A stretch of 64,000 nucleotides of DNA, taken from contig OY253674.1 in the NCBI GenBank assembly GCA_958009085.1, positions 434,001-498,000 of the forward strand, read 5' to 3'. Within the stretch, counting starts at the first letter, position 1, and each line of letters begins with the position of its first letter. This document shows positions 1,367 through 61,937 of the stretch, one piece after another. This DNA comes from Protoeuglena noctilucae (Eukaryota). The notes under the pieces were generated by a model that worked only from the letters and a program-made list of their open reading frames with translations, did no database searches and was not told where the DNA came from. Both the position numbers and the translations under genes were made by a program.

Positions 1367-2005
1367 CTGAGCGGCGCGCGAGTCGTGAAGCCCCAGCTGA
1401 CTCGGTCACGATAGAGCGGGTCCGCGTTGGCATTAGACGTGGCTTCGCGAGGCGTCATGACGTTGACGCGCGGGCCCTGACGGAGGGCGTACCTGCCCCC
1501 GCTCGGTGCCCGCGAGACAGGAGGCTATTGCCGAGCGCGTGGGTGGGAGAATTCATGTTCATCGGTGACCTCTCTGGGCAATATCTGTTTTCCTTTCACA
1601 AGCTTTTGGACCACACTTGACGGGCGCATCTGGTCCTGAGGGCGCTGGACGGCCCACGAGTGTCCTGTCGATTTAAGCTGGATCCACAGGTGATAGCCAG
1701 GAGCACCTAGCACGAGGTGGGGTGCTGGGAATGCGTGGCAGCGCCCAGCATGAAGGTCCGACAACGTCTCCCTTGCCTACCGGGGCTGGAGCGACTGCGG
1801 AGCCCCCCATGTCTGTCTTTGGATGAAGTACTATGCAGGGACGTCTCTTGGGGTGAAAATAGTCGGCCAAGCGGCACGAAGCCTCGAGGCACATGTTGGA
1901 CTTCCATACCTGCCCATGGCTTCAACGCGCGCAGGTCAGAGAACGGCGGACGCGCGCTGCATCATCATTCGGTAGGCGCGGGGTCTGTGAGTGGGGAGGG
2001 GCGGC

Positions 2006-3673
2006 ATGGCGACGTCCGCCAAGGGCGGCGCAGCCCAAGATGCCAAGGGGGGGACTGTCCCGGCGCCTCCGCCGCCCGAAACAGAGGGTGAGGGGCAACC
2101 ACACATCGTCGTATGCGCCAGCGTGAAAGTGCGTGGCTGCTTGGGGCACAGGGCCTCGAGTTTAGGACCCTCTGCCCGCTCGACCGTCCTGTAGCCCCCG
2201 TCCCGGAGGACAACGCCGCTGCCGAGGCCCAGCCGCCCCCGCCGCCGGAGCTAGATGCGGTACCGAACCTTGCGGATGACCAGCTTCGGGAGTTCTGGGG
2301 CCTCCGCGGCAGCCTGGAGGAGTCGGCTGACATGCTGTCCAAAGCCCTGGGGTACCGGGACTATCGGGCGAGTGGCGACCGCTGCGAAGGCACCCGGGTC
2401 AGGTGCTTACTTGCTGGAATGCACGGCACGAATAGCCTCCGCCCCGCCCTCGCAGGTGGATGCCCAGCAGAGCATCCGCCTGGACTTCGCGATGTTCGTC
2501 CTGCAGTTCGCGCATGGGCATGCGCTGACGTGTCCCCAGACCCGCGCAGTGATGAAGGCGTCTCACGCGTTCCTGCACCGTATCCAGAGCGAACCGAACT
2601 TGGACGCCATCCAGGTGAATGACGCGCAAGGACGCTGGCTTACGCCTGTCGCCTGGCCATTCACAGTCTCTCCCAGCAGCTGGTTCGATCGACTCCATTT
2701 CCCCTCGCCGCAGGAGGACCTCAAGAACATGCTCATGCCGATGGTGAAGGCCGCCGTGTCGGCGGATGAAGGGTTCCTTCTTCCAGAGCAGCTCGGGGCA
2801 TTTGGGCGCTTCCTGGTGGATCTGGTGGTGAGGGCACCGGGCGTGCACGCAAGGCAGGTAGATGTCTAGATGCCGCTAGGCTTTTGGGTCGCGAGGCCGG
2901 CGCCGGTTCGCCCGCAGGTCAAGCATTTCCATCTGTGGCGGTTCGTCCTCACCATGGAGCAGGAGCACGACTACACGGGTGAGTGCGAGCGGGTGCAGCT
3001 GTGAGCCGAAGCAGTGCGTAATGGCAGAGTCCGAAAAGCGTTAGCATGCGCCCCTGCAGCCGAGGACATCACGGTGGAGACTCCCAACGCGCCTGTCGAG
3101 TTCGACAAAGTCGTCGTCACCGAGGAGCAGTGGTTCCGAGCGAAGGAGCAGCGCGTACAGGCCGAGGTGACGGCTCGCGACGCGTGCGGCTGCACGTGGA
3201 GGTGCTGCGGCGGCGTGCATGCCGCGGAGAGCTCGCCTTGCCTTGCCCCGCAGGAGGACCGGAAGAAGCGGGAGGTGCTTCTGGCACAGGAGAAAGCGAT
3301 GGAGCAGGACCGGTTGAAACACGAGGAGGAGAGGAAGCGAGCCGAGGAGCAAATTGAGCAGCTGAAGCAGGCGAAGGTATGTGTGTGCGCATGTGAAGCC
3401 TTGCGCCCGTTGGCACGGTGTCGCCAGTGACGCCGCTTGGCCACGCTTGACCACCTGCTGCTCTTCCCCACGCTGCAGCCGGCGTCTCTCGACGAGGCCG
3501 TGGAAATTCAGGTTCGGATACGCCTCGAGGAGGAGCGGCTGAAGCTCATCGCCGAGTTCCAGGCCAAGGAGGACGAGATACGCGAGGAGATCAAGGGCCT
3601 CGCTGCCAAGCTCGCGGCCTCGCTCAACCCGCCTCCCGCCGCACCGGCCGCGCCCCACACCAAGGAGAAGTAG
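2006..3673 (+). CDS. CFAP119/C1a-32 (CLAMP)/C8orf74-like flagellar protein with coiled-coil C-terminus
   Basis: The spliced product reads ...LSKALGYRDYR|VDAQQSIRLDFAMFVLQFA...FGRFLVDLV|VKHFHLWRFVL..., then an E/K-rich coil. Family assigned by motif recall. Confidence 0.55.
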
Positions 3674-4155
3674 CTTGCGATGGGTTTGCCCCTGTGTCTG
3701 TTTCGCCGTTTCAGCTGCCGGGGCGGAATCGTTCAACGATGTGCCAACTCCAGCCATGTTCAACCCGTGGTCCTCGTCGTTGTCGCGGCGGACATCGCCA
3801 GGCGCTACTGCACAGCCGGCAAAGTCTTGAAGTCTTCGTGAGCCTTAAAGGGGCCTAGAGGCATCGGACTGCTCTAATCGCTGTATCTGCGGCATGAAGT
3901 CCTAAGTCACTGCGTGGTCATCGGAGCCAGTTAGGCAGCCTGCCGAGTTTGTGTCCCCAAGGTGACGAGTTTTGACGCAATCGATGTTTGGCGAGCGCCG
4001 ATGTGGATGACGAGCCCTGCGGCGACAGGCGCGGCAAGGTTTAGACTTGCTGGCAGCCTCCGATGTTTTCTCTGGGGGCGGACGGGTCCGCGGCCTTGCA
4101 CGAGAGGCCTCCCAGCGTCCACGCCTTGCCTGCGCCGCAGGGGCGCGGAGGCGCG

Positions 4156-7100
4156 ATGGCGAAAGCCCAACACGCCGCATCTTCCGTTGATGCGGAGCTG
4201 GCGGCGGCGGATCAGGAGTACGCGCGTTTGAACGGTGAGGGGCGCCGAGCACGGGGCCCAGCCTCGCGCAGCCTCGCCCACTGGGCCTCTCGCCGTCCAA
4301 TGGGCAGACAGCATCGGAGAATGCTTTTCAAATTGCTGGGGGAGATGCTGTGCCGGGGCTGCGAAGGCCCTCAGGAGCCTCCTGCGGCTTGCCCGTCCCA
4401 GCAGCACCCGTGTTCCCCCTCCCGCAGCTTCTGCCAAGGGCGCCCGCGATGATATCGTCGGGAAGCTGGCCTCCTATGCGGGGGAGGCCGGTCAGGCTGC
4501 CTCGAAGAATCTCGGCGCCCTGGCGCAGGAGCTGCGCCTCCTGGATGAGTGCTCCGATGCCGTCGCGAGGTGCGCGCCGGCCGCGCCACCGTGCGCGGCG
4601 CGCTTGCCTGCTACGTGCGATTCAATTTGCCGATGTCTCCCGCCGGGCGCAAGGGCGAGATCTCGAGGGGCGCAAGCTCTTAGCGCCGCTCATCGATGCA
4701 TCCCCTTCACTGGCCCGCAGCATGATCAAACTCCAGAGGTCGGTCGTCCAGCTCACAGAGGCGTCGTCGGTGTTTCAAAATCCAGCGGCTCCCGGGTCCG
4801 CAACCGCCCCGACGATGAAGGACATGCAGGCCGCGGTGTCGGCCCTCGCCACGACTCGCAAGCTGGCTGCCGGTGCGTGTCGCGGGCGATCCTGGCCGGC
4901 TGGAGTCCCAGCCGTCGCCTGGAATCGAGACGTCGTCAGACTGCACCCCGCCTCGGTCTCCGCAGACGCCGCGGCGAGCTCACGCACCGTCACGGGCCTG
5001 GGGGCCGCGTTTAGCTCCGTCCTGATTGCGGTGGAGAAGGCGGAGCATTCGGTTCGCGCTAGGGCCGCCGCGCACATGCAGCGACACCTCAGGTGCGCGG
5101 CGCGGGCGCGCTGGGCCCTGGGAGCGAGGTCCGCCCCTGCGGCCGACACCGATGCTCAGCCAGCCACCCTCGCCTCCTCCGCCGCAGCGCCGTCGGGTGG
5201 CCCCCGGATCTGTCCACCGCGAAGGCCAAGGCGGGCACGCCCGAGTGGGCCCTGACCTGGGGCCACCTGTCGGTGTTTGCTGGGAACGCCGAGGCCCACG
5301 AAGGCGTGGCGCGCATCTCCTGCATCCTCCGGGCGCTCCAGAGAGTGCTGGAGACGTCGGAGTCCCATCAAGGTGCGAGGCTCGCTCGACGCGATAGATG
5401 GGGGGTCTCACCTCTCAGCTGCAGCTGTTGTCCATTTGCTGTGGACCCCACTTCGCGGCAGAGACTCTCCGCGGAACCAGCCTAGGGAGTTAAAACGCAT
5501 CGCAAGTCGCCGTTTACAACCCTAGCTGCGACTGCCGGTCCTCGCAGGTGGCGGAGAGGAGGTAGAGAAGGCCGCAACGGAGGCACCGGCCCCCGATTGG
5601 GCCGCAGAGGAGTTGGTGGCGAGCCTGCGAAGCCGCCTGGCCTTCCACTTCCAGTCCGGCCGAGACGGTGGCCGCTCGCACGCGTCGGGCATGGCCCAGG
5701 CGCTCGGCTGCGCCCGGGCTTGCGCGTCCCTGGTCGTGCCTTGCGTCGACCCCATTGCTGCCGAGATGGCCAGGCTCGGGGACACCCGCGCCTCCAAGTC
5801 CCTGCGGCCCATGGTCCTCCGGGCCCTGGCCCGAGCCACAGGTGCGCTGGGGTTTCTTCCTTCAGGACTCCTGAGCACTGCGCCGCCCTGTCGCCTTTCT
5901 CAAGCGCGGGTGCCTGCGTCGACCTGTGCCACCCCTGCTACCCTAGCACGTATACTCACTCCAGACTCAACCATGTGCTCGCAGGCTCGGTGCTGCGTGA
6001 CCACCTGGAGGCGCTGGCAGCCGAGGGCGTGACGCCGATGAGGGTCGCCACGGAGCTCCTGGCCTTGGATTGCCACTTGGCGGTGTCGTTGGGACTGGAC
6101 GCGGAATGGGCCGGGGCGGGCCGGGACGCAGCGGGGCGGGGCTGCCTCGGGGACGTCCCCAGGGCTCTGGGCCCCGGCATGAGTGCGTCGGGGTCAGCCG
6201 TCGGTCACGGCCAGGCCCTGGCAGCCTTCCTCGCCGGGTGCACCCGGGAGCTGGCGCTGCGGGCGACCGCTGCGTTCGACGCGCCCGACGCCTGGTCCCC
6301 GCTGCTGACGGCGGCAGATGCGTACGACGGGACGACGAGGGGCGGCGGGTGCGCGGGGGTGGCCCTCCGGGTGCCGTCCCCCGCCACGCATGCGAGCGAC
6401 GCGCTCGCGGGGCTCCTGTCCACGTGCGTGACCTGGGCGGCTGCGCTGGACGAGGACGCGGTGCGGATGTCGGCCATCGCAGACATGGCGGGCGCCGTGG
6501 GTGAGCAACGCTGGGGGCATCCCGCGTTGACATGGAACTGAGAGCGTGTCTACAGCGAGCGTGTTCCTGCGACTGTGTCACTGTTGCATGATCGGTGGAG
6601 GGTTGGATTGCATTGCGCTGTACGGGTGTCGTATGCGCGCTGACTCGGGTGCTGCCAAGTGAGCCATGCGGGTGGCTGACTGGTGAAGCGCAAATGCAAT
6701 CTCTGCTTCTTTCTCTTGCTTCCCAGTCAAGGCGGCCCTCGCTCGTCTGAGCCGGGAGATGGAGTCGGCAGCCGCGTACGACGAGTGGGTGACCGGGCAC
6801 TGGGGCGCTCGTTGCGCTTCGTGCGTGTGCACTGCCGAGGCCCTGGCCGTGGCGCTGGATGAGCTGACGCTGGACGGCTCCGTCGCGGCGCTGGGCAACC
6901 CCCAGCCCATCACGCAGCACGCCCGAGCATGCCGGCGCTTCCGCGATGAGTGGTGAGCGGGGTGCCGTGCGACGGTGTATGCCCGCAAAAACGCACGCGA
7001 AGTGGCTCTTGATGAGAGGCATAAGCTGCCAGCCAAGCTGGCAAAGGCGGTCAGCTTTATGCACGTGGCCCCTGATGTGCGTGCCATCACGACCGCCCAC

Positions 7101-10100
7101 CCTCGTCTCCGTCCGCAGGTGCGGCCGCATCGGCGCTGGCCTGGCCTCTCACGTCATCCGCGACATGGCGCCGTGGAAGGCCGCGTGCAAGGCGCGGTAC
7201 ACGGCCCTGTCCTTCGACGTGACCTACTCGGCTGCCCCCGAGCTCACGCGCGCCCTGGCCACGTTGTCAGACTCCCTCGAGGCCCTCTGCGCCCACTACG
7301 ACCCCGTCACCCTCCGTGAGGTCCTTCGCGCCCTCCTCCCGACGCTCACTGTCGACATCTTCAACACAGGCGAGGCGATTATTAAGTGCAGTGGATCTTC
7401 GCGGCTGCGGGGGTGCTATCAGGCCCAAGAGCAACCTCCTGACTCGTCTGCAACACCTTGCTCACTGCATCACCTCCTTAAACCCCCCCGTCGAGGTGAA
7501 TCACAGTTCGATACCCTTGATAGCCGCTTACCCTCCTTTGATGTTCAGTGGTGACGGAGCACGAGTTCAGCTCGGCGGGTGCTGCCAACTACGAGTCGGA
7601 CGTGACGGCCATCGCCACCACGGCCCAGGCCAACCTGCCCGGCGCGTGGGGCTACATGCGCGAGCTGTGGGACGCAGCGGGGCTCCTCTGCGCACCCCTC
7701 TCCCAGGGACGCCAGGCCATCGCAATGTTGACGCAGGCAAGCGGTTGGGTTGCAACGGGGCCTGGGACTGGGCCTGGCAGTGTTTTATGTTCGCGCACTC
7801 TGTGTGCGCAATCGGTGCCCCCAAGTCCTTGACCATGGCAGTGCTTTCCGCTGTCGAATCTTTCTTGTTTCAACGTCGCTAGCGGGCGGCTCGGTAACAC
7901 TTGTTGCGATTGCCAGAAACAGCCCACGTGTCGGTCCGCGCAGGGCCTCAAGGACGCCGCTCCTCGGGAGCAGAAGGAGTTGTTGCAGTCGCTGGGAGTG
8001 GAGAGGCTGACCGTGGAGCAAGCCATTGCTGTCCTGTCTCAGAAGCTGGTGGAGTACGACGAGCAGGGAAACGAGGTGAGATGGGTGGGGATGTGTGCTG
8101 TTGTACGCGGTCTTTGTAGGCGGAGGGAGAGAGCGATGTGCCAATGATTGGGCTACGAAGCGACCGATAGACACCCATGCAGCGTGTTAGGGAAACAGAG
8201 CGTCATCATCGTCACGTGTCATCAACAATCAACAACACCCCTTAACTCTCCTTTCCGTCCGCAGCTTGAGCCCTCCCGGCCGCAACGGAGTGGCGTCCGT
8301 GGCGGACTCGGGGGGGCCAACGCCAGGACGGCCCAGGTGTTCATGCCACCGCCCAGCAGCGGGCGGCCGTCGTTGTCCACGCCTCGGAACTCCCAGGGGT
8401 GGCCGTCGGCACTCGAGGGTGCCGATCGCGCTCACACCCACACCCCGGCCCGACGGGGCCCCATTTCCGTCGATGAGGTGCGCGACGTCGCGAGTCGCGA
8501 TGGCAGCGCAGTCGCGGCGGCCGGCGGGGCGGACGCGGCGCTGGGGGACCTGGCTGTGAGTGCCGGGGCGTCGCAGGCCCTGGCGGAGTCGAATGGCATC
8601 CCGTCGCTGTCTCACTGGGACGGCACGGGCCAGTCGACGGCGTGGGGTGACGGGGAGGGTCAGGACGGGACTCAGTGGCAGGGTGCGGAGGGCGGAGCGT
8701 GGTCCGAGGCCGCGCAGGGCGCAGGGTGGTCGGAGGCCGGGGCAGACGCTGCGCCGGGGTGGGGCGGTGGGTGGGGTGGCGCTGACGGTGGGGTGGCGGA
8801 GGGTGGCGTGAACCCCGCGGGCAGCGTGCCTGCTACGGGGGTCTCATCTGTGGACGCTGGGTACGAGCACGACCCCGACTACGTCCGCGGTGCTTACCGG
8901 GACGATTCGAACCGAGACGAGGCCCCCCGGGATGGGGCGTATGCGGACGAGGGGTATGCAGATGGAACCTACCAAGATGGGGCATATGCAGATGGGACGT
9001 ACCAAGATGGGGCGTATCAGAATGGGGCATACCAAGAAGGGTCGTACCAGGAGGGTGCGTACCCAGCGGACGGTCCCATGAACGCGGCAGGGTGGTGGGG
9101 TGGCCAGAGTGGTGGCGTGGAGGCATACGGTGAAACGGGTGCGGAGGGCGGGGGCTGGGGTGCCGAGGGGTACGGTTACGCGCCAGAGGACGGGTATATG
9201 CCAGAGAATGGGGACGTGCAGGGCTGGGGTGCGGGACAGGACTCTCAGGGCTACGCTGCCGAGGGTTATGCAGCGGACATGGGGCCTGGGGATGTGGGAC
9301 AGGGCTGGGGTGCAGGGTACGCATCGGGCCAGTATGTCCAGCAGGAGGGGGGATGGGGTGCAGTTGGGGAGGAGGGTGGTGATGGGGCGGTTGCGGGAGG
9401 GTGGGGCATGCAGGAAGGGGAAGAAGGCGGTGCAGGGGAGTGGGGTGCGCAGGGAGGGGAGGAGGGAGGTGCCTGGGATGGTGGGGCTGGTGCGTGGGAC
9501 GGGGGTGGGGAGGTGGCGGACGTGGGCGGCGTGGCTGCGGACGATGGAGCAGCGGGCGAGGCGGGCATGGGCGACGCTGGTGGGGAAGTTGAGAGGAATG
9601 GGGCGGAAGAGGAGGGAGCGGGGGAGGGATGGGAAGGGGGAGAGGGAGGGGAGAAGGAGGGCGAGGGCCTGTCGCGGGGACACGTGACGCGTCGTGCGCA
9701 CTTCCCGACCAATGCCACTGTCCTGGGCAGCGACAACGCGTGGCAGGGGTCAGCGACGCCGCCTGAGTCGCCTGGGCCAGATGCGGATGAGTATGTTGAG
9801 GGGTATGGGGAGGATGGCTGGGCGGTCGATGAGCGTGACCCCGCGTGGGGCGATGGCACATGGAGTGGCGCTGGGGCCCAGGGCCACTCGCTGGGCGATG
9901 ATGGGGCGGATGGGGCGGGTCCATCGGGAGTGCAGGAGTGGGGTGGAGCGGGGGCTGAGGGTGGGGAGGTCGGGGAGGCGGTGGTGGGTGGCGCCAAGGG
10001 CATTGATGGGTATGGGGAGGGAGCTGGGGGCGGGAGTCGTGAGGGGGGTGGGGATAACGCTGCAGCGGCGCAGTGGGGTGCGGAAGCGGGGGCGGAGGGT

Positions 10101-13004
10101 GGCCAGGGTTGCGCAGCCGGGCAGTGGGGTGGCGAGGGAACAGCAGAGGGCGATGCTCCTCAATGGAGCGGGGAAGGGGCGACGGAGGGTGGGGAGGGTG
10201 CAGGTGTGCCTGCGTGGGGTGGAGAGGGCTGGGGCGAGGGCAAGCCTGAAGATCTGCCAGGCGCCGGGGATGGCGAAGTGGCTGCGGAAGGGTGGAACGG
10301 GTGGGCCCAGGGCGGTGCTGAGCAACAGGGTGCGGTGGGCTGGGGAGAGGGTGCGGCTGAGGAAGGGGAGGGGTGGGGTCAGGGCGGTGGTGGGGAGGAG
10401 GGTGCTGCGTGGGGTGATCATGCCCAGCAGGCGTGGGGTGGTGTGCAGATGGATGGGCAGTGGGGCGAGAGCCAGGGGTGGGCGCAGGGGCAGGAGGGTG
10501 GTGACGCGGTGGGTGGTGCTGGAATGGGGGACGCGGGTGATGGGGCGGCGGATGTGGGTGGATCGAATGACGACGCTGCTCGCACGGAGGCAGCACCCGA
10601 GTCTGCCGTCGCTGGCACGGATGGGCCCCACGAGGGTCATTCGGGTGGCCATGGCTGGGGCGACCGGGGTGACGCCGATGAGTATGGCGGTGAGGGGTAC
10701 GGCAATGACGATGGCATTGCCAAGGACCAGGGCGATGACCGGGTGCCGGGGGCAGGCGAGCGAAGAGCAGGGGCTGTCCCAGGAACAGTGGCAGGGCCAG
10801 GAGGGGCATGCCGAGCAGTGGGAGGGTGCGAATGGGTGGGGCGCGGCGACGGGGATGGCAGAAGGGTGGGGAGAGGAGAAGGACGGTGCGGAGGCTTCGG
10901 GGTTTGAAATGGGACGGGTGGAGACGCCGGAATGTTCGTGGGACACCCACAGGAGGCTGGTGGTTGGGGGCATGTGCCGGGGCGAAGGTCGTTTGGCGCG
11001 TCGAGCCACGCTGACAAGATGGCTCATCTGGAGTCTGTATTGGAGGATTCTGGGGAGGCGGCAGCTGCGAGTGAAGACGCGGGGGGGGCAGGGAAGGGTG
11101 CGGAGGTGGAGCAAGGGTGGGCGGGGGCTGGCGAGGGGTGGGCGGGGGCGGAGGGTGCGGGGGAGGGGCTTGGGTGGGGTGGAGGGGAGTCGGGGTGGAG
11201 TGCGGCAGAGCAGGGTTGGAAGGATGCGAGTGGGGATCAGGGGTGGGGGGAGGAGGCGAAGGGTGGGGACGGCGGAGCTGGGGAGGTGGGGGCGGAGGGG
11301 AGCGCAGGCGTCGCCAATGCTGCAGTGGAAAGTGCAGTGGAAGGCGAAGAGACAACCTGGCCCAATCACGTGGTTGGCGATGCCTCGACAGACACCCACC
11401 AGGCCCACCACCCCGCCCCGGACGCGCCATCCGCTGAGCACTCGCCCTCGGCCACCCACGCCACGCCACCTGCCGACCGTGGTTCCCCGCCCGCCCACGG
11501 CGCCGACGCCAAGTCCGCCAAGCACCCGCCGTCTCGGCGAGGGTCGGGCAAGCGCCACCCACCGCCGCCCCCGCCGCCGCCCCCGCGTGCAGGGAGCAAT
11601 GCGCCGTCCGAGCGTGCCAGCACGGGCGTGCCCTCTGCCGGGGCGTCGCCGGCGGGGCACCCCCCGGACCTCACGTACCGTGCCAACCCGGCCCCGGCTG
11701 GGGCTCTGGCCGGGGCTGCAGACCACACCGGCGATCCGGCGTGGGGTGGCTCTGTGTTGACGACCGCCGCCGCTGCCACGGGCCCCGAAGCGCATGCCGA
11801 GACGCGGCAGCTGAGCCGCGACGAGTCCAGCGGCCGCAGCCACGAGGCGTCGGGGTGGGGCGCCCCCCCTTCTGGCGGCGCTTCTGGCGTTGCTGGCATG
11901 CCAGACGGGGCGTGGCAGGCGCCGGGCGCGGCTCCCACTCGCGGCCCGGGGACGTCGCAGGGAGGCGTTTGGTCCCCGCCTCACGCCGGGAGCGAGTCTT
12001 CGTGGGGCGCTCCGGCCACTAACGCATGGGATGGACATGCATGGCACGCCGGCCCTGCCGCGACCACTGCCGACCCCGCCCGCACCTCACCCGGCCACGG
12101 CCACGCACCGCCGCACGCCGCGGGCCTCCCCGGCGCGTCCGTCCAGGGCCCGACCACCCGCATGCTCGTCCCGGACGTGCCGCCAGGCCCCGCGCCCACC
12201 TGCCCGGCGAGCGTGCCTCCAAGCGTGGCCCAGCCGTCCCTGCCGCTTACCACCTCTGGGAACCCCGTTCCCTCCCGGGGCTACTCGGCGGGTCACATTC
12301 ACGTTCCGTCGTCGCATTCGGGGACTCCCGTTCCCTCCCGGGGCCCTTCCGCCGGGCAGATTCACCTGCCTGCAGTCCCGCAGAGCCCCGCGCAGGGCGC
12401 GATGCAGGTGCCAATGCCGACGGCCGCCTCCGTGCACCAGCCGCAGTTTGCGCCGCACCAGGCGGTGGGTCCTATCGTGCCTAGCAGTCAAGGCACCTCT
12501 CCTGCAAGCGCCTCGGGCCAGCCCTTCTCGCCCCGCTCGAGCATGCAGGGCGCGCTGTCGCCCCGCATGGGCCGCCCCGCGCAGCTGGGCTACTCGGTGG
12601 GTGGCACCCCGGCCGGTGCCCTCCTGCCCGGGGCATCCCCGGGGCCAGGGATCATCCCGCCCGTGCAGCCGTTGCCCGCGCCTCGGCTCTTCATCCCTCA
12701 CGGGTCGACCACGTGGGGTGGGGGTGGTGTCCCAGACGCACCCGTCGCCCCGGCGGAGTCTGTCGCTCCCGGGGGTTTCAAGACTGGGAACCCCGATCTT
12801 GCAGCTGTGGGGGCGCAGCGCGGCGCCGCAGCAGCGGCGGGTGCCAACGCGGCTGAGCCTGGGCTGGCTGGCATGGGGACGGCAGGGGTGGGGTTAGGGT
12901 GGGGCATGGATGGGGGCCAGGAGGCCGGGTGGGGGACAGGAGACGACGCAGGGAGTGGGTGGGGCGGCGGCGGGGGGTGGGGCGGTGGAGGGTGGGGCTC
13001 GTGA
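4156..13004 (+). CDS. RINT1/TIP20 (MAG2-like) tethering subunit with a very long acidic Gly/Trp-rich and Pro-rich C-terminal extension
   Basis: RINT1/TIP20-like motifs are PDWAAEELVASLRSRLAFHF, VVTEHEFSSAGAANYESDV and LTVEQAIAVL. A phase-0 intron at 8076-8263 (GAG|GTGAGA...CCGCAG|CTT) joins the core to the low-complexity exon. The frame is disturbed at about 10750-10915. Confidence 0.65.
8931..9065 (+). repeat. Nine tandem 15-bp units encoding the pentapeptide DGAYA/DGTYQ/EGSYQ
   Basis: Units such as gatggggcgtatgcg, gatggaacctaccaa, gatggggcatatgca and gatgggacgtaccaa read directly from the sequence. Confidence 0.85.
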
Positions 13005-13106
13005 GACTGTTTTCATAAGTCCAGGTTTTGCGACGTGCTGGGTTCCTCAGATCCGCCAGCATCGCGGCATCTTCCCGCTCCCTGCCGCGAGCGTAGCTGG
13101 GCAAGC

Positions 13107-15048
13107 TTACGCCGTTTCTTGAGCTTCAACATGAATCTGCGCTGCCTTGAATGTCAATATGCTCATCAGCAAAATTGCCTCCTTTAAAATGGGAGCCTGG
13201 GCACTTGGGCCGGCGAATACTGCCGGGTTCGAATGCCCTGCGTGCGGTGCGGTTCGAGACACTTGCATCTTGCCTTCGCTCAACACGCTGCTGCTCGCAT
13301 GCAACCACGCTGCCGCCTGCGCGCAAGAGCTGCCGCTTGCATGCGAGGGCTGCAGCTCACCACGCGTCTGCGGAAGTCGGCGCAGTGCCCTTCGGCGAAG
13401 TACCGCTCCACCTCTGGGACGTGCTGCTGGCACGCCGCCACGCGCTCCTTGCTGAGCGGGTGCGTGCGCAGCAGCGCCGGCACGCGCTGCCCCGTCTTGC
13501 GCGCCATCTCCTCCTCCGCCCTGCGCACAGAGAGAGCGCCTGTTGTAAGTCTCAGATACAGAGAGCTATCCGTGACCCTGTGGCAGGGTCACGTGCCTTG
13601 GCATGGTCGATACATCACATCACGATGAGTGACTCTACCATAGAGTTAAATGGACGATGTTTCAAGAAACAATGCCATTTGGTTGCTCAACGAGCAACCA
13701 CTCACCTCCCCAGGCGCTCGAAGACGTGTGCCATGGCTTCTGGGTTGAAGCAGGCCCGCGACATGAGCTCCAGGCCGATGCGGTCCGCCTCGTGCTCGTT
13801 GTGCCGCGAGTTGGGCAGCGTGAACATCAGTTGGAAGAGGTTCGTCACGTCCACCCCGAAGGTCACTGCGCCCGTGGTGAAAAGGATAGGAAGCTCAAGC
13901 TGTGATGGGGTTACTTGACAGAGAGCGTCACGGGCACATGAGGATTCCAGGCGATGCTAAGACTGTCTTGGCTGACGAGCAGCACACGCGAGCACTCACG
14001 CATGGCGGCCAGCCCGACCAGCTGCAGTAACTGCGACCGAGTGAGGCTCTCCGCCACGTGGCGTGCGACGGCATGTCCAATCTGTGAACGCGGGCGGTGA
14101 GTGCAAAGTGGCGGGTGCATTTGTATCCGGGGGTCGATGGGCAGGCTGACTCGTGCCATGGCTGCACGAGCGACCAGGCGAGCGACAAGCACAGCACGCT
14201 CGCCTCGTGAGACAAAACCCCCGCGATGCCATCCACGTCCCTCACGAAGTCAATCAGACCGCTAAACACGACGACCTTGCCGCCGGGAAGCACGAAGGCG
14301 TTGACTGCGTATTAGAAAGAGTGCAGGGGCACCCATCACGCATCGTAAACGTGCTGAGGACTGCATCGAACACACGATATCAGAGAACATCTGGCATCTG
14401 TCGATGTCGTCGACACACACCTTGGTCCGACTTGACGACGTGGAACTCCCACTCCATGCCCTTGAGGTGCCCCTGGTCCCCACCGCCGTAGCCCTTGCCG
14501 GCCGCGATCGCGATGCGCGTCCCGACCTGGCGGACCAGCTTCGTGTACTCGTGGTTGCTGGGGAGGACCAGGCCTTTCGAAGCAAACTGGTCGAGCAGCT
14601 GGCGATACATGTAGGCCCCCAGCTGACGCTCCCAGCTCACGGGAAGCAGCACCATGTGCTTCCTGCGTCGCAAATACAATCGAGCAGCGTGAGCCGATGG
14701 CGCGATACGCCCTGCGAGTCGGTATTCGAGGCTTCCGGAGCGAAGAATCGCGACTCGCCTTGCCGTGAAGGGCACCGTCTCGCGATTGTTCCACCAGACG
14801 ACCCCGAAGCCGAGCCCCCCCACGGCTACCCCCCGCAGCCACGCATTCACTCGCTCCGCCGTCCAGTACGGACCACGCCCATCGAAGTGCGTGTATCCGT
14901 CCGCAGTGGTCCACATCGCCCGTCGCAGAACGACCGGGGACGGCACAAACGAAAGGGCATGCAGTCCCGGGCCGCTTAGGGGGCCTGGGGACCCCCTAAG
15001 TCCGGCATAGATCCGCCAAGCCCCTGCGAGAGCCCGTCTGGCGCTCAT
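13107..15048 (-). CDS. OMA1: Mitochondrial metalloendopeptidase, peptidase M48 (OMA1-like)
   Basis: Motifs: ETVPFTARKH, WEFHVV, NAFVLPGGKVVVFSGLI, spliced HE|IGH zinc motif, LPNSRHNEHEADRIG and LLRTHP. Confidence 0.88.
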
Positions 15049-21698: not shown

Positions 21699-22888
21699 AT
21701 GGGCAAGAAGAAAGGCGACGCCGACGCGCCTTTGGGCATGACGCCCGAGCAGGCTGCCGAGGCTGCTGATGCGCAGGTGACGCCGCGGTGCATTCACGCT
21801 GTCGTCGCGGGGCTGCGTCGGCAGCCGAGGCTCTTCACAGTTCCTGCCTCGCAGGACCTGCTGAGACACGCGGTCAGGTCCGGCGTGCTGTCGGAGACGC
21901 GTAGGCTCCCTGCGAAGGGGGTGGCTCTCCCGCCCGGCGACCACGTGGTCGCGCAGAGCCACCGGGACATCATGAAGAAGCCCGCCCAACGCAAGCACCG
22001 CTACCTGGTGTTGCTCTGCGCCCAGATAGCGCCCGTCGCAGCCGGCAAGATCGGCTCCCTGGCCAAGCTGGACACGCGCAACCCAGGTGCGGACGCAGGC
22101 CTGTGCATGCGACATGCGATGGGCGTGGGGCCAAACGTGACGTCGCATGGGTCCCTCCCTTTGACCCCTCTCCGCACCTCCAGTCATGTACCTGGACTTC
22201 GAGGCCGGCCGCTTGAAGCTCCTGGGGACGCTCGCCTTCCCCAAAGCGCGGTACCTCGTGCTGAGGCCAGGGCCGAACGAGCACGTGCTGTGTGAAGACG
22301 TGTTTGAGTCAGTCATCGGTGCGTGGCAGTGCAGGAGCAACAGCCCTGGCGTCAGTTTGTGTTGTTAGCTCTGCGGGAGTGCATGTGGTGCAATGTGGCT
22401 TGTGTCTGCAGTCTTCTCGCGTGCCGTTTGGGTCGGGAGCAAGGAGGACAACCCGGACGAAGACCCGCTCGACATGCCGGCGACCTTCGGGGACATCGCG
22501 CACACGGGCGCGGACTTTGGTGGCGGCGCGGGGAAAGGCCCGACGGTGATGACGGCGGAGGGCGGGGACGACACGGGGATGTCGGATGGGCAAGGGTAAG
22601 TGCATGTAACGTGGAATGGTGACTGGCGTGTCTCTCTGAAAAACGCACCGTAGATGGCGACCATTACAAAGGACTCGACGCTGTGATTGCAGGGACGGCG
22701 ACAGCGGCAGCGACGGGGAGGGGGACGGGGGCGGCGGTGAGGCCGTCGCGCAGTGGGGGGGCCGTCGGTCCAGGCGGCCCAAGGTGTCCTACGCGGACGA
22801 GGAGGAGTCGGAGGAGGAAGCGAGCGATGCTGGCGAGGACGACGCCGGGTCGGAGAGCGAATGGGAGCAGACGTCGGGGGAGGAATAA
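21699..22888 (+). CDS. RHL1: DNA-binding protein RHL1 (topoisomerase VI accessory subunit)
   Basis: DIMKKPAQRKHRYL...GKIGSLAKLDTRNP|VMYLDFEAGRLKLLGT...LCEDVFE...VFSRAVWVGSKEDNP, followed by an acidic tail. Confidence 0.88.
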
Positions 22889-23050: not shown

Positions 23051-24564
23051 ATGGCTGCCCGACGCTCTGCCGCCGCCATGTCGAAAGCATCTGTCAAAGC
23101 GGCGGCTCAAGCAGATGCTGGACAGTCCTCTCCACTACTGAGACTCAACTTACAAGCCATCCAGGCGCGGACGCGACGCGGAGGGGCGCATGACCTGAAG
23201 GAGGGCCACAATCGCGCATGGGGATTTTCATAGGCTATCCAATGCGCCATCGCATGCAGGATGCGATGGAGCACTTGAAGCGGGTCGACGAGCGCCTGGT
23301 GCCCGTCATCGACCACTTCGGGGCCACGAGCGCAGCTGAGAAGGTGAGCGGACCAACTGCAAGGCGTGTGCGCTCCGTGCGCTTCCATCAGCGCTGAGAT
23401 GGTAGCTAGGACATAACGATACGCCTCTCTCCGGCGCCCCAGCTCATCCCCACTGCGCCCACGGAGGGCACCAGTGTCCCACGGTCGTTTGTGTCGCTGG
23501 CCAGGTCCATCTGCGCGCAGCAGCTCAGCATGAAGGCCGCGACGACAATCTTCCTGCGCGTCTGCGACGCATGCGCCCCCGAGCTGACCCCGAACACCGT
23601 CCTGCGGCTGCCTGACGACACCTTGAGGGCTTGCGGCCTCTCGGCTCGCAAGCTGTCGTACCTGCGCGACCTCGCCAGCCGTTACGAGTCGGGCGGGCTG
23701 TCGGACGCCGCCATATGGGGGTGAGTCCGCGGTGGTGCGAATGGCATGGCCAGGCGAGGTCGCTTGCCCTGCTCACCTTGCCTCCCACCTCACACACCGC
23801 ACGTGTGAGGGCTGCCTCACCTGGGCCCGTCCCTCGCAGCATGTCCGACGAGGAGCTGGTCGAGGCCCTTTTGAAGGTCAAGGGTATCGGTGTCTGGACC
23901 TGCCACATGCACCAGATCTTCGCTTTGGGCCGGCCAGACGTCCTCCCCGTCGGCGATCTGGGCGTCAGGCGAGTACGCATGCTGAGAGCTTGGAGGTGCT
24001 GCGTTGATAGCGCAGACCATGTCTCACTGCATGCCTGATAGCGCACACCAGAGCTGACTGCACTGCCTGGCAGCTTACACCAGGGCTGACTGCATGATGA
24101 CATGGCTACTACCCATTCCTATTGGCAGGAAGGGCATCATGCAACTCTACGGCCTCAAGGCCTTGCCCAGCCCCGGGGAGATGGAGCGGATCACGGCGCC
24201 GTGGAGGCCCTACCGATCTGTGGGTTCCTATCTGATGTGGCAAATCAACTCGGACAAGTGGGCCGAGGTCATGGGGTTTTTGAACGCGAGTGTGAAAGCG
24301 GGTGTAGGGGCGAAGAAGAAGGGGAGGAAGGCGGCCGCGGGAGGAGACCAGGCGGTCGGGGTGGCCACGGCGACTGTGGCGACGGTGGCTGAGGGTGCCG
24401 ACGGGGCTGTGGTGGTCGAGGAGGCTGCGGCAGTGGCGGTGAAGAGCCGGGGGAAGCGCGGGGCGACTACAGTCACGGCAGTGGCAGTCGCGGAGTCGGA
24501 GGCGCCCGTAGTGAGGAGGCGGCGGGCGGCGCGGGGTGCGAGCGGAGGAGGCGCGGACGAGTGA
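23051..24564 (+). CDS. DNA-3-methyladenine glycosylase (AlkA/Mag1, HhH-GPD family)
   Basis: Motifs: [22 protein letters not shown], Hh[25 protein letters not shown] and [13 protein letters not shown]. Confidence 0.92.
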
Positions 24565-24937
24565 GCACCGTAGTTGGGCTGAGACAGAGACGGAGTTCTT
24601 AGGCGAGCAGAGACGCCCAGGCAAACATTGCGTTGATTAAAGCGAGGAAGGGCCGCGGGCAACACTGGCTTGGGCACAGTGTAAGCAAGGCAAAGGCCGA
24701 TGCATGCGTAAAGCACTTCGTGCTTGCTCGGGGGTGCAGCCATGCGCAACAGGGCAGGGAGAGGAGGCGCTAAGGCGCTGTGGCGGCAGGCCTGCATGGG
24801 GCTCTGGATTGACCGGTCAGACCAGGAGGCAATGGAAAATCCCTGGTGACCATGGCAAACAGTGGGGGAGACGATGGCGCCAGAAACGGCTTGCTGTCAG
24901 CGTCGGTGCGCGACTGGCCCAGTACACCAACAAGCCG

Positions 24938-32475: not shown

Positions 32476-35400
32476 ATGGTGTCCCTGCAGCCATGGGTGG
32501 GCCACGTGTGCCCTCCTCGGGTGCGTCCTCCCCTGCGCCCTTTGCCGGCCTTGCGCCGAACCCCAGTGCGGGGCCTGCACCAGCATAGCCGATGTGCGAA
32601 AGCGTCTGCGAGAGCGGAATGGGACGACGGCCCGGAATTGGCGCCGGAGGACGTGGCGCGGTCGATCCGGGAGGCCACGGGGCAGCAATGGGGCAGCGGG
32701 GCCCCGCGACGCGCCGATGGCGCGCCATCGACACCCTTGGCTAGCAGCGAGGTCCGGAACTTTGCGGAGATGATGCGGTCGGGTATGTTCTCGCATCTGT
32801 ACGCGACGACGGACGTGGAGGGCACGATCCGGCGCGCCGTGAACAGCGGGGAGCTGGGCAGCGACGTCCTGGATCGGATCGAGATGCTTCCGGGAACTCA
32901 GAGGCTCATCGACTTCTACGAGCGGTCAGAGAGCCTCGCGGCGTTCCACGGTGCTCTGCGCAAAGGCGTCCTGCCCCGCCCCAGCGAGATGACTTGGCCC
33001 CAGGAGCCCTTCCGGACTCAGTTCCTGCAGGCGCTCTCAGGTGCGCACTGATGCTCCCGAAATGGGTGATGTGGCTGGGTGACGTGGCAGGTTGCTGAGC
33101 ACGCCGGTGCGTTCGGCGGGGACCGCGCTTGCAAACCAAGGCTGCTCCCGTTTCCGCAGACATGGAGATGCCGCGCTTCTGCAGGAAGCACCCGAAGCTC
33201 ATGGCGCCTCTGTTCGACAAGATGGTGGACATGGTGGGGAAGTTCGAGGGCAAGCTGCTCGAGCAGCAAAGCCGCGCCGAGCAGGAGCGGCAGAAGCAGG
33301 AGCGGCAGCAGCAGCAGCAGGCGGCACAGGGGAAGCAGAAACCCGACAACGAGGTCAGTCGCGTGTGTTCTCGCTTTGGAAGGCCATGCTGGGTCTCTGT
33401 TTGGATTCCATCGTCTCGTCGTCTGCTGATGAGGCGGATGCGCCTGGCATGGTCACTTTCAGATGCTGGCATTTGATTGCGTCTCTGCCAGGGCACCCGC
33501 AGGCCCAGCAGAGTGACCAGGGCGGTGCGCCGGGGGATGACACGGACGGGGACGGCACGGCGCAGGGCGGTGGGGAGCCACCGACGCTCGAGAAGCTGCA
33601 GAAGATGATGGAGGAGGTGAGGGGCGACACACTCAGACAGACGGGCAGGGCAGGGGAGCTTGCTGAGTCTTGCCATGCCTGCGCTCTCCGCCACCTCCTG
33701 CAAATCGAGAGCTGTGCTTCGTTCTGCAGCTCCATAACAGGAAGCCCAGCGCTGCGGGGGACCAGGAGGAGGACGATGGCAGGAAGAAGCAGAAGCTGAA
33801 CGTGCAGCTGGAGTCGATGGACGGGAAGCCGACGGCGGGGGATAAAGCGAACGAGGAAGGTGCGGGGGGGGGGGGGGGGGTGGTGGAACGGCGGAGTGAT
33901 GCGTGGGGATGCATGTGGGTATGATGCAAAGTATGGCTGCGTCTTCCTGAACTCGCCTCATCTTGCACAGTATTGCTATGTCCGCTTCGTGACGATGGCG
34001 TGCCCGCAGCCGCTGCCGCGATGAAAGCCATGGCGGAGGAGCTGGCGAGCGAGATCCTGGACCAGTTCCGTGAGGAGTGGGGCAAGATGGCGGAGGCGAT
34101 GGGGGAGGCGGAGGAGGCGTTTGACGACATATCTGAGCTCTTCGAGGGCCGCACTGGGTTCGACCTCAGCCTCAGGTGACGCCCAGGCCTGGAGGGTGGC
34201 GCTCGATCCGTCTGTGTTGTCATCATAGGTTGCGGCATTGTCACATTCAGCACCCCACCCGTCCGCGTACCCATCACCCACGGCAGCACCATTCAGTGCA
34301 GCACCCTCTCGGTCTGCATGCTCTTCTGTTGATGTCCGTGCATGACTGCTGCCAGTTTACTTCTTTGCTGCAGCGTGTGGAAGCGCACGGAGTGGCGCGA
34401 GGTCCGGGAGCTGAGAGAGATGCTGGAGAATTTGAAGGAGCTGAGAGAGCTTGTGAGGTCTCTGGGGAGGGGCGGGGGCCGCGGGCCCATCCGCAGGGCG
34501 CCCAAGGAGGTGAGGGGGAGGGGAGGGCGAATGGTGCTGACGACAGCTGAGTGATGCAGCTGTTCGGGGTTATGATGTGGGGATAGATGTCACACATGGT
34601 CACTGTCGTGCGCCACGTGAAGCGACCCGCATCCTTCACATGTAGCCCCCCTGTGCATGCCTGCAGGTCTCCAAAGCGAAGCTCCCGCCAGGCGTGGTCC
34701 ATTCGGAGCTCTGTCCCGAAGAGACCCGCGGCCTGACTCGATCGGGGGACCTGTCGCGGATGCTGCCGGCAGAGGCGGCCCTCATGGCAGCGGGGTGGCC
34801 CAAGGGCAGCGACGCCCACGGGGAGGGCGCGCGGTGAGTCACGCCGGGCCCCATGCTCATGTGCTGCTGTGGCTCTCTTAAAGGCGCGCCTAGTCACGTC
34901 ATCTCCATCACCAGGCCCGTTTCCTGCTGCTGTGGAGCTGTGCAAGCGTTGACAGGGCATGGACCTCACTGCGCCCACTGACATTGCAGGGGCAACCGGG
35001 GCGCCAGGCTGCTGCACCTCGCCCGGCGCGCCGAGCGCACGCTGCTGAGTTACGAGCGGAGTGGGTGGCTGGACGATGAGCCGAGCCGCGTGACGGACAT
35101 CCTTGAGGTGGGGGACTCTCAGCCATTGCAGCGGCAGCAGTCTCACGCTTCCCTTACAATGCGCACGGAACCGTTCGCAACACCCGTTCCCGCTCGCCGC
35201 AGATGCGCCCAGCGGCCGAGATGGGCCCGATCATTCTGTGCCTGGACACTTCAGGGTCCATGGTTGGGGGCCGGGAGAAGATCGCCAAGGCTCTGGCCCT
35301 GGAAACGCTGCGAGGCGCCCACCGCCAGCGCCGGCAGGCCTACTTGTACGCCTTCTCGGGCCCCATGCAAGTGCAGGAGCTCGAGCTCAAATGTGACACC

Positions 35401-59221: not shown

Positions 59222-59836
59222 TTACCACACGACCTGCACGGCCTTGCATTTTTGCTCGAGGTCGGCGTAGTCGGCATCGAAGTCCCGGTCCTCCTCGGCC
59301 TTGCCCTTGACGGGCTTGGGCAGCACCATCATGCAGCTCGTGGGGCGCTTCGTGAGCCCCGCGGCCCCGAGGTCCTCCTTGCTCGGCACGAACACGTACG
59401 GCACGTCCCGGTCCTCGCACATAACGGGAAGGTGCGAGATGACGTCCAGCGGCGAGATGTTCCCGGCGATAAGGCATATGCCCTTGGTGTCCTTCCGCAG
59501 CGCTTTCACGACCTCCTTGACGCCGCGCTTAATCTGCTTCTTCTTGGCCGCCTTCTTGGCCAGCTTCAGGAGCTTCTTGCAGAGCTTCTCGTCCGCGAGA
59601 GGCTTGGCGATCTTCACCAGGTTCCCGACAGGAACGACTGCGAGGGAGTCCGGGCACGTCCGCTCGGCGAGGCGCGCAGCGGAAGCGTTTTGGGTAAAGA
59701 GAATGCCACGCGGCCAGCGCTGACCTGTTGGGGCATGGCCGTCGTCCTCCGCGGGCGTCTTCGGCTCCTTGGGAGTCTTGGGCGTCTTGGGGGTCTTCTC
59801 ACCCTTCTCCCGCTTCTCCTTCTTCTCCTTGGTCAT
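59222..59836 (-). CDS. NHP2: H/ACA snoRNP subunit NHP2 (L7Ae family)
   Basis: Motifs: IAKPLA, IKRGVKEVVKALRK, AGNISPLDVISHLPVMCE and DLGAAGLTKRPTS. Confidence 0.95.
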   Translation of the reverse strand: MTKEKKEKREKGEKTPKTPKTPKEPKTPAEDDGHAPTGQRWPRGILFTQNASAARLAERTCPDSLAVVPVGNLVKIAKPLADEKLCKKLLKLAKKAAKKKQIKRGVKEVVKALRKDTKGICLIAGNISPLDVISHLPVMCEDRDVPYVFVPSKEDLGAAGLTKRPTSCMMVLPKPVKGKAEEDRDFDADYADLEQKCKAVQVVW

Positions 59837-60408: not shown

Positions 60409-61512
60409 ATGGGCGCTTCTGGTTCAAGGGTGCCGTACCCGACGACCCAGAGCGTCAGCAGTTCCCCATCGGTGTCGATGGTTCGCTCACGTTCTCGCAA
60501 GCCATCATGATTCTCCAGCGCACCATGACCGAGGCCGGCACCGTCGGGTACGCCCCTACTGTCTCAGAGAGCTACGCGCTGGGCACCGTGTTCGAGAAGG
60601 AGCGCCGCAGGGTGCGCCAATGGGCCATCTCAGCCATGGCAGGGGGGCTGGCGGGGACGTGGATGGCGCGACGGAGGGGCCTCATGGTTGGGTGGGCGCG
60701 GGGTGTGCTCGGGAGCACGTTTCTGGCAGTCTCCTGCGGGTACGTGATCGCCATGAGCAGCGTGAAGGAGGTGGCGCGGGTGGCCTGCGCGCTCGACACT
60801 CCGACGGGCGCAGAGGCGCGGCACTGGAGCCAGGTGGCCAAGACTGGTCTCACGTTCTCGGTGGCGCCGTACCATCGCGAGCTATTCGAGTCCATCCCCA
60901 GGCTGGCGTCCGCCGCCAAGCTGGAGCAGGAGGCGGAAGAGGCGAGGCTCATTCGCGAGGCGGAGGCTACCGGGGACGCGACACGGCTCAGGTGGGCGGG
61001 CGGGGTGGCCCACTTCCATCGCTCGCCATGCACCTGTTCGCGGTTCATGCCGCGTGCCGAGCAGAGCTCCCCTAGCCCTGCTATGTGCAAACAGCAAGAG
61101 CAAAGTGCGACAGTTGGCACCTGAAGCGAAGTTTTCCGCGCATTGCAGGGCGTTTAGGGAGTGGAAGTGGGCCCAGCACGCGCGGGATATGACGTTGCGC
61201 GCGAGGGAGGCCAAGCTGCCGGGGCAATCATCCGACAGTGGGGATGGGTCGGGGACGACGACGGCAGTGGCGCCCCTCCCTGCTCCCTCGGGCGGCGATG
61301 AGGCCGGGCGGGGTTGGGAGCAGGATGAGAGCGTGGGTGGCGAAGGGTCCCGGGACGGGAACGGGTGGGGGGACGGCCCGAGATGGGATGAGAGGCGTGG
61401 TGGGGACGGAGGCGGTGGTGGGGAGATGGTGTGGGACGACCTGATGGGATCCTCAGATGGGCCGGAGGGCGATGCGCGGCCCAGGAATGGCGAGGGCGGG
61501 CCACACGGGTGA
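60409..61512 (+). CDS. Hypothetical membrane protein (two hydrophobic segments, Gly/Trp-rich acidic tail); start uncertain
   Basis: The coding-like ORF at 60507-60990 has two hydrophobic stretches and splices (AG|GTGGGC...TGCAG|G) to an exon ending at 61512. Confidence 0.5.
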
Positions 61513-61937
61513 GCTGAGATGGACGTGAAGCTGGGGTGGGACTGTGATACGGTGCGTGTGATTGGAGAGGGACGATCCCATTGGAGTTGCCCCAGTTGCT
61601 GGTCTTTTGGCGCCGTGCAGGAGGCGGGGTGGGCGCGGGCGGCGGAGGCGTGATGCCCCAGGGAACGCGGAGGACGGGCGCGTCGGGTCACGCGGGGCTG
61701 AAGATGACTGATGACAAAAGCACGCGTTGGCACAGAGAAGGGGGCTGCATTGCGGGGAGACGCACAGCGCGTTTGCCGCGGTAGGCTGGCTGTGTATCCG
61801 TTTCTGGCCTGGTGGCGTGTAGCTCCGGCGTGTATTAAACGGTTTATTGTTGACGCCCAGTGTCGCTGCCACCTTGCACGGAGCCCTGACACTGGCCGGG
61901 CCAGTCCCCTCGATGAGGCCCAAACCTGTATGGACCT

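Follow-up and report, generated by a model that had tools for sequence, protein, structure and literature searches.

A RINT1/TIP20-like core spliced in frame to a long acidic Trp/Gly-rich tail in Protoeuglena noctilucae

Results

Layout of the RINT1-like core

In a 64,000-nucleotide (nt) stretch of the Protoeuglena noctilucae genome (assembly GCA_958009085.1, contig OY253674.1, positions 434,001 to 498,000; hereafter the window), a forward-strand gene begins with a core resembling the RINT1/TIP20 subunit of a vesicle tether and continues into a long acidic sequence crowded with Trp and Gly (Table 1). An earlier note on this DNA had drawn attention to the combination and proposed that the tail may be a relocated COPI-binding lasso or an Argonaute (AGO) hook. 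We built a gene model of the core from RNA joints, splice-site matrices and the open frame; it consists of 11 exons between 4141 and 8075, starts at ATG 4156 and gives a product of 764 amino acids (aa). The RNA consisted of marine metatranscriptome contigs of three libraries from one study (X1, X2 and X3), of which 41 out of 43 were at least 99% alike to the window; for none of the runs was a base difference or an indel listed. A DNA run (X5) contains the whole stretch and is possibly the source of the assembly itself.

RNA joints were seen for introns 4873-4965 and 5093-5187, and exon 5 is bounded by intron 5373-5547; the other boundaries of exons 2 to 5 come from the model and agree with the X1 depth table, and for exons 6 to 8, RNA contigs lie over the beginning of exon 6 and the last part of exon 8, with other contigs over what is between. 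The 15 RNA-supported introns listed define a local consensus in which all end in CAG (mostly CGCAG) and 3 of 15 have a GC donor. Two further introns of the RINT1-like gene, after exons 9 and 10, also have GC donors, which the depth model backs. GC..AG introns are common locally, occurring at 2368, 7370 and 7737 on the plus strand and at 14082-14203 and 14663-14758 on the minus strand. Exon 11 finishes with ...KLVEYDEQGNE on a codon boundary and, as had been claimed, contains no stop.

The assignment of the core to RINT1/TIP20 draws on a domain match, its position and the size of the product. Pfam scans were run on single exons rather than on the spliced 764-aa core, and exon 10 matched RINT1_TIP1 (PF04437) with 22.0 bits (E 8.5e-5) when scanned as a stop-to-stop open reading frame (ORF) and with 19.2 bits (E 6.2e-4) when scanned as the clean exon alone, against a cut-off of 30 bits in both cases. 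The match spans model positions 416-477 of 514 and falls in the penultimate exon, colinear with the family domain; since 37 model positions remain and the 44-aa last exon can hold them, the end of the core coincides with the end of the family domain. The length of the core lies within the ~700-800 aa expected of RINT1/TIP20, human RINT1 being 792 aa long according to Table 1 of PMC4206994. Judged by these sequence features, membership of the RINT1 family is likely, if short of demonstrated: the earlier label of a RINT1/TIP20-like core agrees with the weak match, its position and the size, but the score is below threshold.

Table 1 Features of the RINT1-like gene and its tail, in window coordinates
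Feature	Position	Strand	Description	Evidence
Core exon 1	4141..4234	+	Start codon at 4156	Gene model; X1 depth observed 8.44 / predicted 8.46 and 6.78 / 6.87
Core exons 2-5	4428-4569, 4721-4872, 4966-5092, 5188-5372	+		
Core exons 6-8	5548-5841, 5985-6500, 6727-6952	+		Predicted from splice matrices and open frame
Core exon 9	7119..7369	+		X1 depth observed 7.44 / predicted 7.47 and 7.08 / 7.11
GC..AG intron	7370-7548	+	After exon 9	Predicted, depth-supported
Core exon 10	7549..7736	+	Sole RINT1_TIP1 (PF04437) match	Depth fit
GC..AG intron	7737-7943	+	After exon 10	Predicted, depth-supported
Core exon 11	7944..8075	+	44 aa; last RINT1-like exon	X1 depth observed 6.25 / predicted 6.33
Core-tail intron	8076..8264	+	189 nt; GTGAGA..CCGCAG; phase 0	Absent from RNA
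T1a	8265..8801	+	179-aa Ser/Pro/Arg/Ala-rich linker grading into GW motifs	GC at third codon positions (GC3) 0.82 (normal)
G-skewed block	8802..10742	+	Acidic Gly/Ala/Glu/Asp/Trp low-complexity coding sequence, frame 0	
Tyr repeat	~8955-9063	+	5-residue repeat of G-A/T-Y-Q/A-D type	DNA periods 15/30/45
Out-of-frame stretch	10743..10952	+	210 nt, between G5 run (10748-10752) and C3 run (10946-10948)	
In-frame TGA	10905..10907	+	End of the ORF as encoded: 764 + 880 = 1,644 aa	
In-frame ATGs	10932 and 11019	+		
T2a	10953..11399	+	Acidic GW block resumes in frame 0; 8 Trp in 149 aa	
T2b	11400..12800	+	Pro/Ala/Ser/Gly-rich block	GC3 0.80 (near-normal)
T2c	12801..13004	+	GWG-rich C-terminus (last 67 residues); TGA 13002-13004	

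The core and the tail are joined in RNA

Core and tail are separated by one intron whose sites (donor GAG/GTGAGA, acceptor CCGCAG/CTT) match the local consensus, and splicing of 8075 to 8265 in phase 0 sets the core in frame with the Gly/Glu/Asp/Trp-rich ORF. The intron had previously been placed at 8076-8263; it is canonical and in phase 0 as described, but it really ends at 8264. In X1 record 2 (1242 nt) and in X3 record 16, a matching piece begins at 8263, and since AG stands at both 8074-8075 and 8263-8264, a piece that starts at 8263 is equivalent to the joint 8075/8265.

In a depth test, the five listed X1 contigs were set on the exon model and contig depth was multiplied by the covered fraction of each bin. 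In 18 of 25 bins, among them all bins in 6774-9377, the exon-only model came within 0.09 of the X1 depth; bin 8076-8509 was wholly accounted for by cover from 8265 on (observed 6.86, predicted 6.83), and the length of record 2 was predicted as 1240 nt against the 1242 nt reported. This fit implies that the introns, including 8076-8264, 7370-7548 and 7737-7943, are essentially without RNA, that the library contains little DNA or pre-mRNA, and that a single contig spans core exons 8 to 11 and runs into the tail (to 8749). RNA depth is equal on both sides of intron 8076-8264, with the tail at core-exon depth.

Taken together, these results reveal that the core-tail fusion is real: contigs cross 8075/8265 in two libraries (X1 and X3), and one expressed mRNA joins the last RINT1-like exon to the tail exon. 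Transcripts ending near 8150, with a separate start for the GW-rich ORF, had been named in the earlier note as the finding that would speak against a fusion; the RNA contigs and the depth contradict them. One X3 contig matches the window from 8050 on and is preceded by 244 letters found nowhere in 2000-15000, a leader that could be due to a chimeric contig or to an alternative upstream exon.

Two long open reading frames encode the tail

With frame 0 defined as the codons that start at positions divisible by 3, the tail is open for 880 codons from 8265 to TGA 10905-10907 (T1); after that stop, a further 698 codons of this frame are open, up to TGA 13002-13004 (T2). The region had been described as about 4.7 kb of apparently intron-free coding sequence, but TGA 10905-10907, which no convincing intron removes, splits it into 880 and 698 codons; the Pro-rich block and the C-terminus ...GWGGGGGWGGGGWGS* are both present as described. 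Codon-position composition predicts 20.1 in-frame stops for the 880-codon ORF and 9.35 for the 698-codon ORF, and each stayed open in 0 of 5000 position-preserving and 0 of 5000 mononucleotide shuffles; both tail ORFs are longer than chance by far. When a codon log-odds score trained on the core and the upstream gene was compared over six frames, frame 0 ranked first in every tail segment except 10743-10952.

The central part of the tail differs in base composition from the core. GC skew reaches up to +0.5 over ~8800-11400, the longest such block in the window, and the G-skewed DNA has a GC3 of 0.66 vs 0.86 in the core, being C-poor with many GGT, GGA and GAT codons. GC drops from 0.75 to ~0.60 right after the stop that ends at 13004. 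Long ORFs on the opposite strand (e.g., 8833-11670) occur because the composition is G-rich and T-poor. The tail is not a satellite: Tandem Repeats Finder returned short local arrays only, with periods mostly divisible by three. As a candidate poly(A) signal for placing transcript ends, TGTAA was not enriched (23 matches vs 16.6 ± 4.6 in shuffles), with none in 5519-13543.

RNA contigs cover T1a at 8263-8749 (X1) and 8321-8782 (X2), the G-skewed block at 8796-9141 and 10464-10805, and T2b at 11309-12816 (X1, depth 34.8), 11294-12872 (X3, 11.3) and 11531-12834 (X2, 5.6); no cover is listed for 11114-11293 in X1 and X3. The T2 contigs have ~2.9 times (X1) and ~2.5 times (X3) the depth of the tail start and equal it in X2, and the extra depth at 11294-12872 could come from a transcript that starts internally, from 3' bias or from a break in the assembly. 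Loose contig ends at 8050, 9490, 9637 and 11140 allow no interpretation from the contigs.

Composition of the tail and pattern of its Trp residues

T1 is made up of 28% Gly, 15.7% Ala, 9.4% Glu, 8.0% Asp and 4.5% Ser, with 36 Lys+Arg in 880 aa and with Cys, Phe, His and Met at 1.2% or less each; over 2 kb the tail is nearly without Lys or Arg. The dozens of Trp in GW and WG contexts that had been claimed amount to 60 (39 in 8265-10904 and 21 in 10908-13001), 46 of them adjoining Gly.

For statistics we used a 726-aa block (8565-10742) that holds 37 Trp and has a net acidic charge (D+E minus K+R) of +122. Trp makes up 5.1% of this block vs 2.0% expected from the codon-position base composition, and 29 of the 37 stand beside Gly vs 18.7 ± 3.0 in shuffles, a number that none of 2000 shuffles reached. 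Gly, Ala, Gln, Glu and Asp predominate among the residues up to 3 positions from a Trp, and Trp spacing is mostly 8-27 residues (median ~12) and more even than random. Di-Trp ligands of delta-COP have the form W-x(1-6)-[WF]; taken in this form, such pairs numbered 6 vs 10.0 ± 2.4 in shuffles (97.6% of shuffles had 6 or more), an apparent depletion that would not fit a simple amplified delta-COP lasso. TGG occurs 39 times in frame 0 and 26 and 67 times in the other frames; since it is not commoner in frame 0, the richness in Trp is partly a property of the DNA.

Single-sequence AlphaFold2 models gave a mean predicted local distance difference test score (pLDDT) of 33.8 (822 of 826 residues below 50) and of 38.0 (666 of 683 below 50), with no secondary structure, and the tail is predicted to be disordered.

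A frame break within the tail

The one segment in which frame 0 does not rank first lies between a G5 run and a C3 run. There, frame 0 reads as an Arg/Cys-rich sequence with the worst score of the six frames (-0.70), and frame +1 is tail-like with the best (+0.16); the 54 codons from 10743 to TGA 10905 belong to this stretch. Its length of 210 nt means that the two flanks share one frame. X1 record 4 (10464-10805, depth 10.3, no differences) reaches 63 nt into the stretch at exon-level depth, and RNA within 10806-11113 includes 5.44 depth units that are unexplained and could not be placed, with no indel reported.

An in-phase intron at 10743-10952 (210 nt) was rejected, as mature RNA contains the first 63 nt of it and its splice sites score poorly; every intron that would remove the stop scores at most 8.4, and the 10 plus-strand training introns score at least 11.7. 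Programmed frameshifting was dropped: the G5 run could conceivably permit a +1 slip, but no plausible return-shift site was found. A recent duplication as the origin of the stretch was rejected, no DNA copy being present elsewhere in the window. We conclude that TGA 10905 is most probably present in the mature mRNA, with a product of ~1,644 aa.

The alternative, that the full 2,340-aa protein is made and that the break is bypassed, removed by splicing or an artefact of the assembly or strain, appears quite improbable. It would agree with the acidic GW block lying in the same frame on either side, with T2 being open over 698 codons up to the GC drop, with the in-phase GT..AG pair at 10743/10952, and with the fact that single-base changes in the G5 run and near the C3 run would restore one frame. 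However, the Illumina RNA contig 10464-10805 agrees with the genome letter for letter, at exon-level depth, across the G5 run and as far as 63 nt into the stretch, true introns are without cover, no indels or differences were reported in any run, and the scores of all stop-removing introns lie below those of all training introns. Since the T2 ORF is too long for old junk and ends where GC falls, T2 was the original C-terminus; its 698 codons are now either a very recent relic or separately made.

Relatives and neighbouring features

Word-indexed protein searches gave no match at E<=1e-3 for core exon 7 (among proteins of 301-2000 aa) or for the tail start (350-2000 aa), size ranges outside which fused forms of more than 2000 aa and exon-sized calls fall. 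No relatives of a T2b piece or of exon 7 were found in JGI metagenome contigs, the ESM Atlas returned nothing usable for exon 9 and the G-block, and Pfam gave no family for the tail (8148-10904 and 10908-13001) at E up to 0.1. When 826 aa of the tail were compared by HMMER with 1.84 billion representatives, all 44 matches lay on the Tyr repeat (query 200-290). Pfam applied to 16 of the 44 placed four (P0002, P0014, P0033 and P0038) in pentapeptide-repeat families and found RINT1_TIP1 in none; the likeness of the repeat to bacterial pentapeptide-repeat proteins is probably one of periodicity only.

An exon of NHP2 (H/ACA ribonucleoprotein subunit 2, L7Ae family), a conserved neighbour at 59228-59836 on the minus strand, recovered its own ORF from the window at 100% identity; it has green algae as its best named relatives, with 70-74% identity, and a best other relative with 79%. 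Since the green-algal relatives reach only 70-74%, the genome is that of a poorly sampled chlorophyte lineage, and without a close annotated relative the orthologues of a fast-evolving protein were out of reach.

Upstream, X1 record 1 (2266 nt, window 2194-4234) contains the complete coding region of a gene of unrecognised family with a stop near 3700, then ~260 nt of 3' untranslated region (UTR) and the spliced intron 3962-4140, and so enters RINT1 exon 1 at 15 nt before the ATG; the two genes either have overlapping UTRs or are co-transcribed. Downstream, a convergent multi-exon Peptidase_M48 gene (13236-14758, minus strand), two exons of which match in Pfam at E 1e-6 to 9e-8, ends ~100-230 nt from the stop codon of the tail. 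Shorter GC-skew patches (absolute 0.27-0.40) lie at 22251-22750, 24251-24750, 33501-34250, 38251-39000, 46501-47500 and 61001-61750. One at 46206-47558 (minus strand) falls in a Gly/Ala/Ser-rich low-complexity part of another ORF, and no other skew patch equals the tail block in length or is rich in GW.

Discussion

The results reported above describe one expressed gene of a marine green alga, in which an 11-exon RINT1/Tip20-like core, probably a subunit of the Dsl1/NRZ endoplasmic reticulum (ER) tether, is followed by an acidic and predicted disordered tail. The tail is apparently a lineage-specific extension of a known protein, and its central 2.6 kb appears to have arisen by in-frame expansion of G-rich, C-poor DNA rather than by ordinary protein evolution. 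The frame is broken at the G5 run (~10748), in the genome and in natural RNA alike, so that the product ends at TGA 10905 after ~1,644 aa and the 698-codon former C-terminus, with its Pro-rich block and GWG end, is cut off as a recent relic or a separate product. We hypothesize that the tail extends as a long, flexible arm from that end of the tether which lies near the membrane, and that its many Trp motifs in acidic surroundings serve as weak, multivalent ligands, for which the coat of an incoming COPI vesicle would be the likeliest partner. As a whole, from the fusion to the proposed arm, we give this explanation an even chance. The interpretation in the earlier note is retained insofar as the core is spliced in frame to an acidic Trp/Gly-rich, predicted disordered tail, but that tail is shorter than described, since it stops at 10905.

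Several observations weigh against this explanation. On the side of the core, the RINT1_TIP1 score is below the Pfam gathering cut-off (22 vs 30 bits), 10 of the 11 core exons had no PF04437 match in the single-exon scans at E up to 10, and searches of solved structures with single exons returned chance-level matches only, with neither Tip20 nor RINT1 among them. On the side of the tail, the di-Trp pairs are fewer than in shuffles, and the AlphaFold models were made without an alignment, so that for an orphan sequence their low confidence says little about disorder. A separate transcript may lie behind the depth over 11294-12872, which is ~three-fold higher in two of three libraries, and among the contigs listed there is no RNA continuity over 10805-11294. 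No relative of the core or the tail was found in the databases searched, and a tail whose specific function is slight or absent would agree with the atypical codon usage, with the toleration of the break and with the missing homologues.

That last possibility is the serious rival to a ligand-bearing arm. It holds that slippage and expansion of G-rich DNA in the last exon produced neutral low-complexity growth with no specific ligand, at most a generic spacer, and that the Trp/Gly pattern follows from TGG/GGN-rich DNA; we regard it as a real, if minority, possibility. The C-poor, GGT/GGA/GAT-rich codons unlike those in the rest of the gene, the GC skew of +0.5, the fact that TGG is no commoner in frame 0 than in the other frames, the lack of homologues and the toleration in natural RNA of an internal frame break and stop all agree with neutral growth, and Gly-rich proteins are described in PMC2910046 as typical false positives for GW platforms. 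It is opposed by the 880 and 698 open codons where 20 and 9 stops are expected, by a Trp frequency 2.5 times that expected from composition, by the Gly adjacency beyond 2000 shuffles and the more even than random spacing, by the near lack of Lys and Arg over 2 kb, and by expression at core-exon depth.

[quoted passage not shown] The complex and the membrane are the right ones, and the tail bears Trp motifs in a predicted disordered, negatively charged segment. Against it stand the depletion of W-x(1-6)-[WF] pairs as counted above, a tail at least 10 times the length of the yeast lasso, and the attachment of the tail to the C-terminus of a RINT1-like core instead of the tip of Dsl1, where a lasso would be expected on the Dsl1/ZW10 subunit. 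In its favour, the relevant sections of PMC4868844 state that the Dsl1 homologues of plants and metazoans lack the lasso, which is present in some fungi, and that Tip20 may contribute to COPI binding, and according to the ELM entry as given in PMC7145657, the ligands of delta-COP include Trp motifs with negative charge on their flanks, which bind its MHD. A further reading, in which a green alga independently evolved a vesicle-capture lasso on RINT1/Tip20 with ~40 acidic Trp sites along a thread of several hundred residues, and in which the gene is now splitting so that its former Pro-rich/GWG C-terminal third is expressed by itself, is somewhat less probable still, on a par with the full-length product considered above.

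It is very unlikely that the tail is an ER-anchored AGO hook whose GW/WG repeats gather several AGO molecules at the ER. The 46 of 60 Trp adjoining Gly, the small or polar flanks with a median spacing of ~12 residues, and the predicted disorder would suit such a hook, and the tail resembles the WG/GW domains described in PMC2910046 (rich in Gly, Ser, Trp, Glu, Asp and Asn; poor in Cys, Phe, His, Met and Tyr) in its abundance of Gly, Trp, Glu and Asp and its scarcity of Cys, Phe, His and Met. However, its 15.7% Ala, 4.5% Ser and local Tyr repeat run against the published preference, neither the Pfam Ago_hook nor any other family was found on it, and it is attached to a trafficking tether rather than to a silencing-related domain; among the full-text literature matches listed, no link between RINT1 and Argonaute or WG proteins was found. 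Of the two, the COPI proposal has the better context. Finally, two independent genes, with RINT1 ending in a retained intron (stop 8145, the read-through frame stopping at 8145-8147) and the GW ORF using its own promoter and its first ATG at 8343, are scarcely conceivable and were rejected because spliced contigs of two libraries cross 8075/8265, the intron is without RNA cover and the depth is level on either side.

The choice between a ligand-bearing arm and neutral growth matters in either direction. The Dsl1/ZW10 proteins of plants and animals are described as being without the yeast lasso (PMC4868844), which bears on how COPI vesicles are captured at the ER outside fungi. If the arm is real, an acidic Trp-bearing extension on a RINT1-family protein would be a natural candidate for the missing capture element in one algal lineage, and tail fragments against coatomer would make a simple test system. 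If the growth is neutral, the gene would be a clear, RNA-supported case of an essential trafficking gene that has gained in-frame residues by the hundred through the expansion of G-rich DNA, and it would show that such an extension can be broken by a frame shift without the gene being silenced.

In comparison with known systems, the gene resembles RINT1/Tip20/MAG2 (PF04437; Dsl1/NRZ ER tether) in the size of the core, in the weak match at 416-477 of 514 and in the end of the domain, but here the core continues into at least 880 aa of predicted disordered, acidic, GW-rich sequence; no comparable extension is mentioned in the passages on RINT1/Tip20 in two reviews (PMC4206994, PMC4868844). With the yeast Dsl1 lasso and the ELM class LIG_deltaCOP1_diTrp_1 it would have in common that a tethering complex, the same one, bears an acidic segment with Trp and without fixed structure; the lasso has few Trp and sits on Dsl1, whereas tens of Trp are found here on the RINT1-like subunit, and in contrast to the delta-COP di-Trp motif they are mostly single GW/WG sites ~8-27 residues apart, with pairs below chance. 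The likeness to GW182/TNRC6, the NRPE1 C-terminal domain and SPT5L/KTF1 is one of composition, a GW/WG array in a disordered Gly/Glu/Asp-rich region, and the size of the tail (hundreds of residues, ~40 motifs) is similar to that of SPT5L as presented in the section on such platforms in PMC2910046; unlike them, the tail is Ala-rich and Ser/Asn-poor, belongs to a membrane-traffic protein and has no family match.

Low-complexity insertions and extensions are typical of proteins in GC-rich green algae. The tail is like these in its extreme composition and in being an apparently fast-evolving in-frame expansion within an otherwise conserved gene, but it is set apart by its unusual length, its strong strand skew, its near lack of basic residues and the non-random arrangement of its Trp.

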